Below are positions 2,835 to 13,804 of a stretch of 64,000 bases of DNA, in pieces. The stretch is from Patescibacteria group bacterium (GTDB lineage Bacteria; Patescibacteriota; Patescibacteriia; 2-01-FULL-39-33). The notes below the pieces were generated by a model. The model searched no databases. It saw only the letters and a list, made by a program, of their open reading frames with translations, and was not told where the DNA came from. The stretch lies in NCBI GenBank assembly GCA_041662745.1, contig JBAZRV010000002.1, positions 149,785 to 213,784 of the forward strand, read 5' to 3'. The first letter of the stretch is position 1. Every line of letters begins with the position of its first letter. The position numbers and the translations under genes were made by a program.

Positions 2835-3284
2835 ATGTTTTTTCGCGAAAAGAGATTAAAAAAATGGGCAGAAAATAATGGTTATACTTTTAGAAGTAGT
2901 AAAGATGAAAAATTTAAAGGTTGCTATGCTTTTAACGCAAATGATATTAATATTACTGGCAATCGTAATGGTAAAAGTTTTGAAATTATCGAAAAAGTAA
3001 ATTTATCTTTTGGCGGTTTTGAAATAGAGAGCACATCTCGTGAAAATGAAATAAGAGTAAATAGTAAGAAAGTTTATCCTAAGCCAGAATCATGGTTACC
3101 TAATTTTTTTAATGACGGAGTATTGACTACTAAACAAATAGAAAACTTACTTGATGAGTATATAAAAAATGGTAAAATCGATTATAAAAAATATTTAACT
3201 GTACAACAAAAAGTAAGTTTGATTATTATATTACCCTTTTCAGCACTTATACTTTTTGAATTTATCAAGGTTATATTTTTTTAA
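2835..3284 (+). CDS. Hypothetical small protein in a very AT-rich ORF
   Basis: 149-aa ORF with markedly lower GC than its neighbours. It has a hydrophobic C-terminus and no recognisable motif. Confidence 0.3.
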   Translation: MFFREKRLKKWAENNGYTFRSSKDEKFKGCYAFNANDINITGNRNGKSFEIIEKVNLSFGGFEIESTSRENEIRVNSKKVYPKPESWLPNFFNDGVLTTKQIENLLDEYIKNGKIDYKKYLTVQQKVSLIIILPFSALILFEFIKVIFF

Positions 3285-10377: not shown

Positions 10378-10473
10378 AATTCTTTTTGATAAATATTGCC
10401 CACCTTAGTATTGGTTAAGGTGGGTTTATTTTGTTTAAAATTAGGTATTATTTATTGATTGTGGATAAACCCC

Positions 10474-10502
10474 TTGACAAAATATTAATATCGTGAGATA
10501 AT
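10474..10502 (+). promoter_or_regulatory. Sigma-70-like promoter upstream of the DGR target operon
   Basis: TTGACA at 10474-10479, a 17-bp spacer, and GATAAT at 10497-10502. A hairpin-containing 5' UTR and RBS GGAGA follow. Confidence 0.5.
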
Positions 10503-10586
10503 CTATGCAGTACGTTACATCTGGCAGGCCTTAGGCCGGAGAATAGTTCTCCGGTAGGAGGTAAGCCGCAACATGGGAGAAAGACC

Positions 10587-11273
10587 ATGAAAAAGAAGAG
10601 TGAGTTCTTGAGTGCCCTGGGTGTTATGTGGGAGATTTGGAAATCGCTGACGGACGAAATTTTGTCTTTAGGCGGCGATGACGAGGCGATTTGCCTTATT
10701 AAGGCGAATAATGATCTGCGAAGGCAAATGGCCGAATTGGTAATGGCTAAAGCGCGTGACATCAAAGACGCCGCCAAGCAAATCGTCTCGCCGTATCTGA
10801 CGTCTGTCCATGACCTCGTCATTGACTTCAGTCAGGATCTCGGGCAGATGATTGCCGCCGGCAAGTATGACTGGACCAACTCCGACATTACCGCCGAGCA
10901 TTTTCCTCTTAATGGAGCGGGTAAGCGGAAGGTCCGAGTCGAGTTGCTTCACTTCAATCAGTATTTCAAAAATGGCGATGAAGTGATTGCCAAACTGAAA
11001 GAAGTCAATAAGTGGCTGGCCCAGCAAGGAGCGAACTATCGCTATCGTTTCTCTCGCATTGAAGAGTTTTTGGCTTTGGGCGTGGTCCAACCCGGTCTGC
11101 AACGGCAATTTCCCATTGCCGCTCTGGGCTCAATTTGGCACCGTGCCGGCCTCCGCGACTTCGCTTACCTCTACGGGTTTGGTGCGGAGCGCGACCTGCG
11201 CCTGCGCTGTCTTGAGTTTGACTTCGGCGGCCCTTGGCGGTTCGCTGTTGTCCGCGAGCATGCCTGCCGGTAG
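10587..11273 (+). CDS. DGR target (variable) protein 1. The C-terminal ~41 codons form variable repeat VR1. The C-terminus ends …WRFAVVREHACR, reminiscent of C-type-lectin-fold DGR targets.
   Basis: Its C-terminal 123 bp match the template repeat, with substitutions only at TR adenines. It is paralogous to the downstream gene over the C-terminal ~130 aa and differs at the N-terminus. Confidence 0.8.
   Translation: MKKKSEFLSALGVMWEIWKSLTDEILSLGGDDEAICLIKANNDLRRQMAELVMAKARDIKDAAKQIVSPYLTSVHDLVIDFSQDLGQMIAAGKYDWTNSDITAEHFPLNGAGKRKVRVELLHFNQYFKNGDEVIAKLKEVNKWLAQQGANYRYRFSRIEEFLALGVVQPGLQRQFPIAALGSIWHRAGLRDFAYLYGFGAERDLRLRCLEFDFGGPWRFAVVREHACR
11133..11255 (+). repeat. DGR variable repeat VR1
   Basis: Aligned by eye to TR (12216-12339). 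About 22 mismatches, all at positions where TR has A (e.g. TR AAC codons correspond to VR CTC, TTT, GGC and so on). Three further non-A mismatches lie only in the last ~12 bp. Confidence 0.85.
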
Positions 11274-11284
11274 GCAGGCATGTT
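11257..11284 (+). other. IMH-like GC-rich segment and hairpin (CATGCCTGCC-GGTA-GGCAGGCATG) downstream of VR1. Probable DGR target-recognition/cruciform element.
   Basis: A perfect 10-bp stem with a 4-nt loop immediately 3' of VR1. The same ~60 bp (GTTGTCCGCGAGCATGCCTGCCGGTAGGCAGGCATGTTACCTTGATTCCTTGAACCTTGAC) follows VR2. It is absent after TR. Confidence 0.75.
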
Positions 11285-11333
11285 ACCTTGATTCCTTGAA
11301 CCTTGACACCAAAATCGGAAAAAGGAGGACATC

Positions 11334-11945
11334 ATGAGAACTGTAAGTAAAACCGGAAACAAAAAAGTCAGAACTGGAACTATCTCCGCCATCACTGGCG
11401 CGATAATCTGCCAAGGCGGAAAAGCCAAGGACTTGACTGCGATTGTCAGAAATGATGAATTGCTCAAACAATTGGCCACGACCATTATCGAACTGTCCAA
11501 AAAGATCATTCAAGTCATTGTTGACTGCACCATGTCGCTCGGCGATATGATCGACGCCGGCAAGTATGACTGGGTGAACTCGAACATCAACGCCAACAAC
11601 TTCCCGATCAGCAGGAAGGGTAAGAAGGTGGTCAGCATTGAACTCTGGCATCCCAACAGGTATTTTAATAACGGCGATGAAGTGATTGCCGAGCTGAAAA
11701 AAACTAAACCCGGCTATCGTTTTACTCAGATTGAAGAACTCCTGGCCTTAGGCGCGGTCCGACCCGATCTGCAACGGCAATTTCCCATTGCCGCTCTGGG
11801 CTCAATTTGGCACCCTGCCGGCGACCGCGACTTCGCTTTCCTCGACAGGCATGATGCGGAGCGCAACCTGTTCCTGGACTATCTTGAGCGTGACTTCAGC
11901 GACCGTTGGCGCTTTGCGGTTGTCCGCGAGCATGCCTGCCGGTAG
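11334..11945 (+). CDS. DGR target (variable) protein 2 (paralog of target 1). The C-terminal portion is VR2.
   Basis: The conserved segment GDMIDAGKYDW…WRFAVVREHACR is shared with target 1. Its C-terminal 122 bp match TR with A-specific differences only. Confidence 0.8.
   Translation: MRTVSKTGNKKVRTGTISAITGAIICQGGKAKDLTAIVRNDELLKQLATTIIELSKKIIQVIVDCTMSLGDMIDAGKYDWVNSNINANNFPISRKGKKVVSIELWHPNRYFNNGDEVIAELKKTKPGYRFTQIEELLALGAVRPDLQRQFPIAALGSIWHPAGDRDFAFLDRHDAERNLFLDYLERDFSDRWRFAVVREHACR
11805..11926 (+). repeat. DGR variable repeat VR2
   Basis: It differs from TR at about 17 positions, all TR adenines. The 3' end (TTGGCGCTTTGCGGTTGTCCGC) is identical to TR. Confidence 0.85.
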
Positions 11946-11956
11946 GCAGGCATGTT
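11929..11956 (+). other. IMH-like segment and hairpin downstream of VR2 (second copy)
   Basis: Identical to the 11257-11284 element. Confidence 0.75.
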
Positions 11957-11991
11957 ACCTTGATTCCTTGAACCTTGACCCCTTGAATTTT

Positions 11992-12030
11992 CCGCGCGAT
12001 GACCATAGTTATCGCGCGGCTTTTATTTTA
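11992..12030 (+). terminator. Rho-independent terminator after the target operon
   Basis: Stem CCGCGCGAT / ATCGCGCGG with a 10-nt loop, followed by TTTTATTTT. Confidence 0.6.
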
Positions 12031-12215
12031 TCTAATTTTTTACTATAATAGAGCCAAGGGTTAATACTCCCGCGGCCACGGTTTCGGGATACCCGCAAAA
12101 TAAACAAGATTGCTCGGCGTCTGATGTTGGCGGGTTTAAAGACCCCGAATAAAATACAGCCGGAAGATACGGCCTGGCTGTTCAACCGGCAGTGGCTACA
12201 GATGGCGTCAGACGA

Positions 12216-12339
12216 ATTTTGGCACCATGCCGGCAACCGCAACTTCGCTTACCTCAACAGGAATGATGCGAAGCGCAACCTGAACCTGAACTATCTTGAG
12301 AATGACTTCAACGACAATTGGCGCTTTGCGGTTGTCCGC
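12216..12339 (+). repeat. DGR template repeat (TR)
   Basis: Adenine-rich (Asn-codon-rich if translated: …AGNRNFAYLNRNDAKRNLNLNYLENDFNDNWRFAVV). It matches VR1 and VR2 except at A positions. It is followed by divergent sequence (TATCAATTTTG) instead of the IMH plus hairpin. A -10-like TATAAT sits at 12044-12049 upstream. Confidence 0.85.
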
Positions 12340-12772
12340 TATCAATTTTGTTTTCCGTCCTCGCTGTTGGCGGGGATGTTTTTTCCAAACCGATTTTCCA
12401 CGCATAGGCCAACCGTCCGATTTCCTCAATTTTAAGCGCCAAATCGCGGAATTTATTATCATTAAATAGCTTCATTTCCCAGCACAGCCGCAAATAAAAT
12501 TTCAGCAGATCGATTTTTTTTATTGATTTTATTGCCGGTTTTAATTTTTTGTCTTTCGGCAGATATTGGGCGGTGGCCAGTATTTCCAATAGTTCCAGAA
12601 ATATCTGATCCAGGCGGATGCCCAAGGTAAAGCGAGATGTTTTGGGAAAATTTTTTAACCAATCATGCCAAAGTTTGTAGGCAGCGATGGTTTTGCCCAG
12701 AACCAGTAAATTTCCCGTCGGGGGGGGGGATTTAAAGGATGAATTATGAGAAATAAGATCAGATTGAGTCAT
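12308..12772 (-). CDS. Avd-like accessory variability determinant (four-helix-bundle, 23S rRNA-IVS protein family)
   Basis: AAYKLWHDWLKNFPKTSRFTLGIRLDQIFLELLEILATAQ…LALKIEEIGRLAYAWKIGLE resembles the DGR Avd/IVS four-helix-bundle family. It is encoded on the opposite strand to RT. Its 3' end overlaps TR by ~30 bp and its 5' end overlaps the RT start by 27 bp. Confidence 0.6.
   Translation of the reverse strand: MTQSDLISHNSSFKSPPPTGNLLVLGKTIAAYKLWHDWLKNFPKTSRFTLGIRLDQIFLELLEILATAQYLPKDKKLKPAIKSIKKIDLLKFYLRLCWEMKLFNDNKFRDLALKIEEIGRLAYAWKIGLEKTSPPTARTENKIDSGQPQSANCR
12720..12729. repeat. Homopolymeric G10 (C10 on the minus strand) tract
   Basis: CGGGGGGGGGGA at 12719-12730. It encodes PPP in the avd N-terminus and lies 17-26 bp upstream of the RT start codon, adjacent to its RBS AAAGGA. 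Confidence 0.8.
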
Positions 12773-13804
12773 AGTTTTGACGAGATTATTTGTCTTGATA
12801 ATTTATTGGCGGCCTGGCGGGAATTCGTCCGTGGCAAAAGAGACAAGAAAGACGTGCAAGAATTCCAGTGGCAACTGATGGATAATCTTACAGTGCTTCA
12901 TTGGAATTTGGCAAGCGGCGATTATTGCCATGGCGGCTATCAGGCCTTTAAGATTTGTGATCCCAAATCGCGGCAAATCCATAAGGCGTCGGTTCGGGAC
13001 AGATTAGTCCATCATGCGATTTATCGGATTTTGTATCCGTTCTTTGATCGGACTTTCATCGCCGATTCTTATTCCTGCCGGCTGGGCAAGGGCACGCATA
13101 GGGCCTTGGCTCGGTTCAGTGAATTCGCTTACTCCGCCAGTCGGAACAATACCCGCACTTGCTGGGTTTTGAAGGGCGATATCAGGAAGTTTTTTGCCAA
13201 CATTAATCATGGGATATTGAAAGAGATTTTGGCCGAGTATATTCTAGATAAAAAGATTTTGGGGTTATTGGATGAAGTGATTGACAGCTTTCACTGTGTT
13301 AATGATAACCTGGATTCCTGCTTTCGCAGGAATGACAAGGGGAAGGATGAGGATGTCAGTGGTAGTAGAGGTCTGCCATTAGGCAATCTGACTTCGCAAC
13401 TTTTAGTTAATATTTACATGAATAGATTCGATCAATTTGTTAAGCATAAATTACAAGTCAAGTATTATATCCGCTATGCTGATGATTTCGTGATAATATC
13501 TAATGACAAAGGAGATCTAATTCGATTATTGGAGTTGATTAGCAATTATTTGAAACAAGAACTGAAATTGGAGCTTCATGATGATAAAATTTCCATTCGC
13601 ACTCTTAGTTCAAGCATTGATTTCTTGGGCTGGATTAATTTTCCCCGTCATCGTGTTTTACGGACAAAAACTAAAAGGAGGATGTTTAGGAGATTGCGGG
13701 ATAATTTTAGGTCAGAAGCGGTTAATTCGTATATCGGCCTGCTAAGTCATGGCAATGCTTATGGATTGCAAAAAAAGATTGCTAAATTAGCTGATTTTTG
13801 TTAG
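12746..13804 (+). CDS. DGR reverse transcriptase
   Basis: N-terminal FDEIICLDNLLAAWREFVRGKR. SVRDRLVHHAIYRIL. A catalytic IRYADDFVII (YADD) motif. RGLPLGNLTSQLLVNIYMN. 352 aa, typical of DGR RTs. Located adjacent to TR and avd. Confidence 0.9.
   Translation: MRNKIRLSHSFDEIICLDNLLAAWREFVRGKRDKKDVQEFQWQLMDNLTVLHWNLASGDYCHGGYQAFKICDPKSRQIHKASVRDRLVHHAIYRILYPFFDRTFIADSYSCRLGKGTHRALARFSEFAYSASRNNTRTCWVLKGDIRKFFANINHGILKEILAEYILDKKILGLLDEVIDSFHCVNDNLDSCFRRNDKGKDEDVSGSRGLPLGNLTSQLLVNIYMNRFDQFVKHKLQVKYYIRYADDFVIISNDKGDLIRLLELISNYLKQELKLELHDDKISIRTLSSSIDFLGWINFPRHRVLRTKTKRRMFRRLRDNFRSEAVNSYIGLLSHGNAYGLQKKIAKLADFC

Follow-up and report, generated by a model that had tools for sequence, protein, structure and literature searches.

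A stretch of 64,000 nt from a Patescibacteria group bacterium (GenBank assembly GCA_041662745.1, contig JBAZRV010000002.1, positions 149,785 to 213,784; the whole stretch is referred to as the window) contains a real diversity-generating retroelement (DGR) with two targets. An identical block of 61 nt, found after the variable repeat (VR) of each target, is the 3' boundary of the two paralogous target genes of this one DGR. The block includes a hairpin with a GGTA loop, which by itself is an ordinary DGR target hairpin of an already known sort. The last 25 nt of the block are apparently the local form of a tandem array, (NYCTTDGR)n, found across the clade. With this array, whose function is putative, the architecture of the target site would be a variant on that of known DGR targets. 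Our tentative reading, which we place a little short of evenly balanced, is that the boundary is composite: the array would be a clade-wide marker of integration on the VR side, the hairpin a dispensable and lineage-specific accessory, and the identity of the two copies a product of concerted evolution.

The preliminary description of this DNA reported an identical element of about 60 nt after both VRs, and its interpretation was partly supported. The block, GTTGTCCGCGAGCATGCCTGCCGGTAGGCAGGCATGTTACCTTGATTCCTTGAACCTTGAC, is 61 nt long and is present in exactly two copies in the window (11247-11307 and 11919-11979), with 0 mismatches between them and 0 matches expected in shuffled sequences. The interval first given for VR1 was correct, and that for VR2 (11918-11978) was one base off. 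In order, the block is comprised of the 9-nt end of the VR tail (GTTGTCCGC), a GAG spacer, the hairpin, TTA and the CCTTGA units, which start 8 and 7 nt apart and number three after VR1 and four after VR2. The last 25 nt had gone unnoticed as a tandem repeat, and they are the part that is conserved in the clade. After VR1 the block adjoins the ribosome-binding site and start of target gene 2, and after VR2 it adjoins the terminator at 11992-12019. A scan for remote copies identified no further hairpin, VR or VR-tail copy in the 64-kb window.

The template repeat (TR) proceeds with the unrelated sequence TATCAATTTTG, as had been described, and the flanks part after GTCCGC. The reported absence of the block after the TR is true of the 52 nt that are specific to the VRs, but the first 9 nt, GTTGTCCGC, also end the TR. 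These 9 nt had been proposed as a VR-side segment resembling the initiation of mutagenic homing (IMH) site; as they are shared with the TR, the real IMH equivalent is instead the 22-nt tail TTGGCGCTTTGCGGTTGTCCGC. Similarly, the VR hairpin is missing after the TR, as stated, but the TR is not free of hairpins, since a distinct terminator-like hairpin followed by T6 is present at 12356-12378. Immediately past the tail that they share, the donor and recipient sides therefore have nothing in common.

The hairpin with a 10-bp stem and GGTA loop was confirmed after each VR, both by folding of the 3' flanks (-18.1 and -18.5 kcal/mol as single-stranded DNA, z about -3.8) and by the positions of its parts. 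The 5' arm CATGCCTGCC lies at 11259-11268 and 11931-11940, the GGTA loop (sense strand) at 11269-11272 and 11941-11944, and the 3' arm GGCAGGCATG at 11273-11282 and 11945-11954. The stem consists of 10 Watson-Crick pairs, 7 of them G-C, and can be lengthened to 12 by a G.T and an A-T pair. The hairpin encodes the last five residues of the target (E-H-A-C-R) and the TAG stop codon, which runs across the loop and 3' arm. An assembly artefact is unlikely, because three independent assemblies hold the hairpin in frame at one place. In the accessible text of Guo et al. 2011 (PMC3240598), target hairpins have GC-rich stems (7-10 bp) and loops of 4 nt that conform to 5'-GRNA on the sense strand, lie 4-34 bp from the VR end and are absent after the TR; the stem structure and the loop sequence matter, and the stem sequence does not. 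The window hairpin agrees with this description in its stem, its loop and its absence after the TR, and starts 3 nt (GAG) past the point where VR/TR homology stops (1 nt with the two additional pairs), slightly outside the published 4-34 bp.

The hairpin was also considered as an intrinsic terminator. It is not one, because it is followed by TTACCTTGATT with no T-run, and because the VR1 copy is intercistronic, within the operon. A terminator scan reported the hairpins at 11992-12019 and 12356-12378, and not the VR hairpins.

The clade was sampled by a search with the reverse transcriptase (RT), which returned 80 loci from Patescibacteria metagenome-assembled genomes (MAGs) at 51-67% RT identity. 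An adenine-biased TR/VR pair was found in 63 of these, and fractions of 63 below refer to this set. Nine closer loci were added via homologs of the target protein. RT relatives at 51-73% identity all adjoin TR/VR pairs. The order of VR, TR approximately 470 nt downstream, antisense avd and RT is common to 61/63 loci; in L036 and L059 the VR is inverted and located downstream of the RT. Among viral sequences, the RT relatives amounted to one contig, with 35% identity and without a clear adenine-biased repeat pair.

A degenerate tandem repeat with the unit consensus N-Y-C-T-T-D-G-R and a period of 8 was present after nearly every VR in the 63 loci (in L049, for example, ACACTTAG ATTCTTAG ... TCCCTTTG ATTCTTTG GCTCTTTG GCTCTTTG). 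After the VRs, the most frequent CTT-to-CTT distances are 8 nt (91 cases) and 7 nt (41 cases); after the TRs the distribution is flat. Relative to the loci as a whole, CTTAG was enriched 22-fold and CTTTG 13-fold after the VRs. Three or more chained units followed 54/63 VRs. Four or more followed 44/63 VRs, compared with 18/594 other 3' flanks of open reading frames (ORFs; Fisher p = 8e-39), 5/63 TRs, 41/1660 random stretches and 0/63 VR flanks read on the opposite strand. The first unit begins a median of 10 nt past the end of homology, and the median span is approximately 50 nt. In L036 and L059, whose VRs are flipped with respect to the RT, the array still runs in the direction of the VR. 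It also occurs at VRs that come after the RT or have no RT nearby (second target of L083, and L084). The closer loci carry CCCTTGA-like units, as does the window, and in L081 and L082 the stop codon lies inside a unit. In the window, the array also follows VR1, inside the operon.

The main rival to a composite boundary is that the array acts in the target mRNA. The hairpin and array would then be 3' untranslated or intercistronic elements unrelated to cDNA integration, serving for instance as protection from 3' exonucleases, as a processing site between cistrons or as sites for an RNA-binding regulator. Such a role would fit the position of the array, which in every case is located after the stop codon and before the operon terminator and is therefore transcribed, as well as its strict strand-specificity (0/63 on the other strand). 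Short single-stranded repeats spaced 7-9 nt may also resemble known RNA-protein repeat sites. Against this, the array tracks the VR ends and was found after only 18/594 other genes, which is not decisive as the sampled VRs represent one protein family, and no Rfam family was matched at E <= 1 in 10400-13000. On balance, we consider the mRNA role unlikely. If the array is only an mRNA element, an ordinary DGR with a canonical-looking hairpin remains.

Two further accounts of the array were considered and set aside. A stop-codon trap acting in several frames after a frameshift-prone VR seems unlikely, since many units (CTTGG, CTTTGG, CTTTGT) are stop-free and the conserved CTT would remain unexplained. 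As a series of promoter -35 boxes (TTGACA-like), it lacks a -10 element at the right spacing after VR1.

Within the 70 nt after the VR, a GC-rich hairpin near the end of the VR was identified in 2/63 loci, namely L001 (GGCA loop, 32 nt away) and L036 (AGA loop). Other strong hairpins in L016, L020, L023 and L033 are followed by T-runs and were judged by eye to be terminator-like. Among the closer loci, the strain-level relatives L085 and L086 keep the window hairpin, with one stem mismatch in L086, and L087 has a duplicated version of the GGTA hairpin. L083, L084 and L088 have longer hairpins, whose base is CCTGCCCGC/GCGGGCAG and whose apical parts differ, and at the second target of L081 the 5' arm alone remains. 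No hairpin was found after the VRs of L082 and L208. The former is a syntenic ortholog of the window locus (RT 73% identical, with the same CCG and LUD genes downstream), and its two VRs differ from their own TR with 16/20 and 13/17 mismatches at adenines; the VR of L208 differs from its TR with 24/26 mismatches at adenines. The mostly A-specific divergence in these hairpin-less loci indicates that the hairpin is not needed for that pattern in the lineage. When L082 (GTCCGCGAGCA followed directly by ATCTGACCCCTTGG) was aligned with the window (GTCCGCGAGCA, TGCCTGCCGGTAGGCAGGCA, TGTTACCTTGA), the 20-nt hairpin core, TGCCTGCCGGTAGGCAGGCA, sat exactly as a discrete insertion would, with GAGCA joined to ATCTGA in L082 and GAGCA, the core and TGTTA in succession in the window.

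These results bear on a canonical reading modelled on BPP-1, in which the hairpin and IMH would be the essential target recognition elements and the rest of the 60 nt would be carried along. The hairpin does follow both VRs and agrees with the published stem, loop and TR-absence features (PMC3240598, accessible text); hairpins with a CCTGCC-type stem are present at a like place in L083, L084, L087 and L088, and in one of these a T-A to C-G compensatory change was noted. However, the hairpin is absent from L082, L208 and nearly all of the 63 loci despite A-specific VR divergence, the apical parts in the relatives have not kept a GRNA tetraloop, the IMH portion is the same in the TR and VR2 with no (G/C)14 run, and copies of the core abound at places that have no VR. 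The earlier proposal of the hairpin as a DGR target element is thus partly supported, by its fit to the published stem, loop and TR-absence features and not by conservation in the DGR lineage, and we regard the canonical reading as improbable.

An observation from Candidatus Buchananbacteria concerns targets at a distance from their template. The TR at L208:4986-5112 matches a target on another contig, L081:4479-4600, with 22/23 mismatches at adenines, and the latter is, as judged from this mismatch pattern, a remote target of the L208 TR. Its tandem neighbour (L081:3816-3943) has 46 mismatches to the L208 TR, of which 20 are at adenines, together with an indel, and resembles a VR that has decayed. 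Upstream of the L081 target pair there is also a direct repeat of 84 nt with no mismatch (L081:2835-2918 and 2929-3012).

Exact matches to the 20-nt core TGCCTGCCGGTAGGCAGGCA were found in at least 119 JGI metagenome stretches (L089-L207), and 0 matches were found in IMG/VR contigs. The VR tail was not present upstream of the core in any of the at least 119 stretches listed. Among the matches listed, the core forms part of a sharply bounded unit of approximately 22 nt, (G)CC-TGCCTGCCGGTAGGCAGGCA, set in otherwise random flanks (112 distinct contexts); the GC content of the flanks ranges from 29 to 68%, a T-run follows three copies only, about a third of the copies are no more than 400 nt from the end of a contig or locus, and a DGR is present in two core-carrying loci only. 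The core is in tandem in L109, L119, L127, L178 and L207. The preliminary description had named recurrence at many unrelated loci without a VR as evidence against the element; such recurrence was found for the 20-nt core alone, and not for the whole 60-nt element.

Our best guess is that the 22-nt unit is a short dispersed palindrome. Families of repetitive extragenic palindromic (REP) elements are each restricted to one species, with multiple copies per genome. The core resembles REP-type repeats in that it recurs with sharp boundaries in unrelated contexts; it is unlike them in that it occurs in contigs of very different GC content, and in that the 64-kb window holds the two VR-linked copies alone.

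The 22-nt A-free tail, TTGGCGCTTTGCGGTTGTCCGC, has a GC content of 64% and a longest G/C-only run of 5 nt. The last TR adenine is at 12317 and the following 22 nt are A-free; because the tail bounds adenine mutagenesis in this way, it is the functional counterpart of the IMH. The VR2 tail is identical to the TR tail, and the VR1 tail differs from it at 3 synonymous positions, within the last 16 nt. For Bordetella-phage-type DGRs, one-way homing had been attributed to a difference between the IMH and its TR counterpart, IMH*. This does not carry over to the window: with the same tail in the TR and VR2, and no (G/C)14 run, the tail alone cannot make homing unidirectional. In the relatives, the last stretch of VR/TR homology (up to 20 nt) was identical in 28/63 loci. 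Where the IMH and IMH* are identical, recognition must reach downstream, according to the accessible text of Wu et al. 2018 (PMC5758913).

Both VRs look active, as suggested by the A-specific mismatches and by the strain variation of VR1. Among three strain-level assemblies, VR1 has 28 variable columns, 25 of them at TR adenines, which shows that VR1 diversifies between populations; the other three columns are tail markers. Activity of both targets had previously been deduced from the element they share; the activity appears to hold, but the perfect identity of the copies is weak as functional evidence. The identity between the two targets spans 211 nt (11097-11307), within which the only differences are at TR-adenine positions and at the three tail markers, and it takes in 38 nt upstream of the VR that have no TR homology. 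As the TR cannot homogenise these 38 nt, they point to concerted evolution of the paralogs, so that the copy identity says little on function. We infer that the identity of the two block copies reflects concerted evolution at least as much as selection.

A stronger form of this argument would make the block a functionless by-product, its identity arising from duplication and gene conversion and its hairpin from a neutral or selfish insertion of a palindrome. The 211-nt identity, including the 38 nt beyond the reach of the TR, would be explained in this way, as would the insertion-like L082 alignment, the 112 distinct contexts of the ~22-nt unit among the matches listed, the occurrence of the core in either orientation and at differing places in other DGR loci, and the decayed hairpin of the second target of L081. 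The array is left unexplained, as it is conserved across 63 loci with RTs 51-67% identical to that of the window. Furthermore, the three synonymous tail differences inside the block indicate that it is not simply a very recent copy, and among the three strain-level assemblies the 90 nt downstream of VR1 contain 1 variable column compared with 54/574 upstream (Fisher p = 0.004), making this region more conserved than the coding sequence, although L086 does tolerate a stem mismatch. We therefore consider a mere by-product quite improbable.

The three tail markers (window 11240-11246; TR positions 12324, 12327 and 12330) separate the window VR1 from the TR. The window version of the VR1 tail, GGTTCGCT, is also present in the L082 TR and in both L082 VRs, and the sister strains L085 and L086 carry the TR version, GCTTTGCG, in their VR1 tail. 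Such a pattern resembles marker transfer in a natural experiment, with a 3' limit of cDNA transfer that would vary within the 22-nt tail. In BPP-1, the transfer boundary lies within the (GC)14 region (accessible text of PMC3240598), which is comparable to a variable limit inside the window tail.

The composite boundary that we favour would operate as follows. As the TR and VR2 tails are identical, donor and recipient would be told apart by the sequence past the tail, with the hairpin and repeat array as the signal on the VR side and the terminator-like hairpin on the TR side. The tail cannot discriminate the TR from a VR, so the VR-specific downstream sequence should carry the recipient signal, and the array is proposed for this role because it is the sole downstream element conserved across the clade. 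The (NYCTTDGR)n array would mark or prepare the integration site of the mutagenised cDNA, perhaps by serving as a platform for binding on the sense strand, probably the template of the lagging strand. In this lineage, the GGTA hairpin would have been gained by insertion of a common 20-22-nt palindrome, and may enhance homing as the BPP-1 stem-loop does, while being dispensable. A more specific version, in which the array replaces the hairpin or cruciform as an undescribed target-site determinant (for example, as a platform for Avd/RT or a host factor) and the GGTA hairpin is a secondary add-on from a widespread palindrome, is possible but rather doubtful.

GC skew is positive in every 8-kb interval across 1-64000 (+0.02 to +0.10). 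This makes it probable that the DGR targets are oriented co-directionally with replication, which would place the sense strand, with the hairpin and array, on the lagging-strand template. In the reconstituted BPP-1 DGR, the co-directional orientation is favoured and the cDNA is suggested to anneal to the lagging-strand template (PMC12875486, accessible text).

Several observations weigh against the composite boundary. We infer the homing roles of both the array and the hairpin from sequence comparison. In the target transcript the array was always in the 3' untranslated region, in most cases ahead of a terminator, and an RNA role fits this position equally well. The RT lineage and the target-protein family co-vary in the sample, so that a link to the VR and a link to the gene family are inseparable. 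Fewer than three chained units were present after 9/63 VRs. The second target of L081 has a degenerate array and a broken hairpin, yet 22/23 of its mismatches to the L208 TR are at adenines; a complete copy of either element would thus not be an absolute requirement. Outside DGRs, the hairpin core is a common sequence; in L145, from the same clade, it lies inside a repeat array in opposite orientation, and in L190 it lies 12 nt after the TR. Finally, pairing of the array with the flanks of the DGR RNA was rejected, since shared 6- and 7-mers were no commoner within than between loci (permutation p = 0.35-0.46), and this negative result favours recognition by protein. Pairing with the RNA of the relatives was likewise rejected, the invariant ACTTGG being unchanged in loci with CTCAG-unit arrays.

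The features of the locus are listed in Table 1. The two target genes are tandem paralogs with 48% identity, and the target 2 protein is identical to P0001, a hypothetical protein of a Patescibacteria group bacterium MAG in NCBI. In DGR targets the VR typically belongs to a C-terminal ligand-binding scaffold with a C-type lectin or Ig fold; in the window targets the VR is likewise C-terminal, and sequence searches with the proteins returned neither a Pfam domain nor a PDB match. LGNLTSQ and YADD are motifs typical of DGR RTs. The bAvd ORF as mechanically defined overlaps the 3' end of the TR by 32 nt and the start of the RT by 27 nt. It crosses a G10 run (12720-12729) past which there is no alternative start codon, so that either the true start of avd or the length of the homopolymer is uncertain.

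Table 1. Coordinates of the DGR features in the 64-kb window.
Feature	Position	Strand	Remarks
Promoter-like site of the two-gene target operon	10474..10502	+	TTGACA-17-GATAAT with TG; 11/12 consensus positions; consensus match alone
Target gene 1, 228 aa, VR1 at 3' end	10587..11273	+	48% identity to target 2
VR1	11134..11255	+	26 mismatches to TR: 23 at TR adenines, 3 synonymous non-A in the 3' tail
A-free 3' tail of VR1, TTGGCGGTTCGCTGTTGTCCGC, IMH equivalent	11234..11255	+	3 positions unlike the TR tail
Hairpin after VR1, CATGCCTGCC-GGTA-GGCAGGCATG	11259..11282	+	Stop codon TAG at 11271-11273, across loop and 3' arm
Repeat array after VR1	11286..11306	+	CCTTGA tt CCTTGA a CCTTGA; 3 units, starts 8 and 7 nt apart
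Target gene 2, 203 aa, VR2 at 3' end	11334..11945	+	Protein identical to P0001
VR2	11806..11927	+	15 mismatches to TR, 15/15 at TR adenines; 3' tail identical to TR tail
Hairpin after VR2, same as after VR1	11931..11954	+	Stop codon TAG at 11943-11945
Repeat array after VR2	11958..11986	+	Same three CCTTGA units and a fourth (cCCTTGA)
Intrinsic-terminator-like hairpin and T-run, end of target operon	11992..12029	+	Hairpin 11992-12019; 12 pairs, 8 G-C; tail CTTTTATTTT
Probable structured 5' domain of DGR RNA	12050..12217	+	Reduced form of the covarying domain of relatives; correspondence by eye; TATAAT at 12044-12049
TR, 122 nt	12218..12339	+	31 adenines, each falling on codon position 1 or 2 in the target reading frame
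Terminator-like hairpin and T6	12356..12384	+	Hairpin 12356-12378, 17 nt past TR
bAvd ORF, between TR and RT, converging on TR	12308..12772	-	PF22296, E = 2.7e-11, above curated cut-off
DGR reverse transcriptase, 352 aa	12746..13804	+	RVT_1, E = 2.9e-27; LGNLTSQ and YADD motifs in translation

On the donor side, a terminator-like hairpin with a T-run was found 12-17 nt after every TR (L001-L077). The stems differ in sequence yet remain complementary (CTCTCCC/GGGAGAG, CTCCGCC/GGCGGAG, CCCCGC/GCGGGG and CTCCTCTAT/ATAGAGGAG, with TTTTGTTT after each). MAFFT/RNAalifold analysis of the TR 3' flank recovered 4 pairs only, from a poor alignment, and the hairpin can be seen directly in the unaligned sequences. 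This hairpin may form the 3' terminus of the DGR RNA, correspond to the priming structure in the BPP-1 spacer, or both. Directly 5' of the TR, a domain of approximately 250 nt in 24 relatives has 56 predicted pairs, 45 of them with compensatory changes. In this domain (L002:4215-4462 and 23 other loci) the covariation term was -15.9 kcal/mol. The predicted fold contains two hairpins of GATTACGGTTTC type, a single-stranded AAAAATGAAGATACTTGG that does not vary, and a helix of long range whose closure falls just before the TR. No Rfam match was obtained for it at the gathering score (L002, L009 and L063). The DGR RNA of the clade thus seems to be a separate short transcript comprised of the structured 5' domain, the TR and the terminator hairpin. 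The avd gene lies on the strand opposite to this RNA.

Patescibacteria DGRs form one of the largest DGR clades. If the 8-nt array is indeed a VR-side signal in these DGRs, it provides a concrete candidate sequence. The three synonymous tail markers, overwritten in two sister strains, would in addition point to variable 3' boundaries of transfer inside the 22-nt tail. Our search of the DGR literature returned no description of the array; Paul et al. 2017, on DGRs of the candidate phyla radiation, lay outside its coverage and may mention it. A literature search by sequence gave no match. The way in which DGR cDNA finds and replaces the VR is incompletely understood, according to the accessible text of PMC12875486.

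Compared with BPP-1 as presented in the accessible text of Guo et al. 2011 (PMC3240598), the window likewise has an inverted repeat right after the VR and none after the TR, a GC-rich stem of 7-10 bp with a 4-nt loop fitting 5'-GRNA (GAAA in BPP-1, GGTA in the window), a target stop codon at the hairpin, and an A-free VR tail that bounds adenine mutagenesis. Unlike BPP-1, the window has no (G/C)14 run, and its VR2 IMH equivalent is the same as the TR counterpart. The hairpin is 1-3 nt from the VR end, rather than 4-34, and is not conserved in the closest relatives. The window also differs in the tandem 8-nt array after the hairpin, and in the antisense position of avd between the TR and RT.

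In the Nanoarchaeota DGRs, as in the window, the hairpin overlaps the coding sequence of the target (Paul et al. 2015, PMC4372165, accessible text), and it is thus constrained at both the protein and the DNA level. The Nanoarchaeota hairpins differ in their GRA trinucleotide loops and in their differing IMH/IMH* (TGGGGT vs TGGAAT), and no repeat array is reported in the accessible part of that paper.

High-confidence inverted repeats were present in 34% of 372 DGRs in the accessible text of Wu et al. 2018 (PMC5758913). Most of the Patescibacteria clade combines the lack of a GC-rich inverted repeat with an identical IMH/IMH*, and so belongs to both groups of that study. No other downstream element is put forward in the accessible part of Wu et al. 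2018, whereas the clade has a candidate in the (NYCTTDGR)n array, present after 44 to 54 of the 63 VRs depending on whether four or three chained units are counted.

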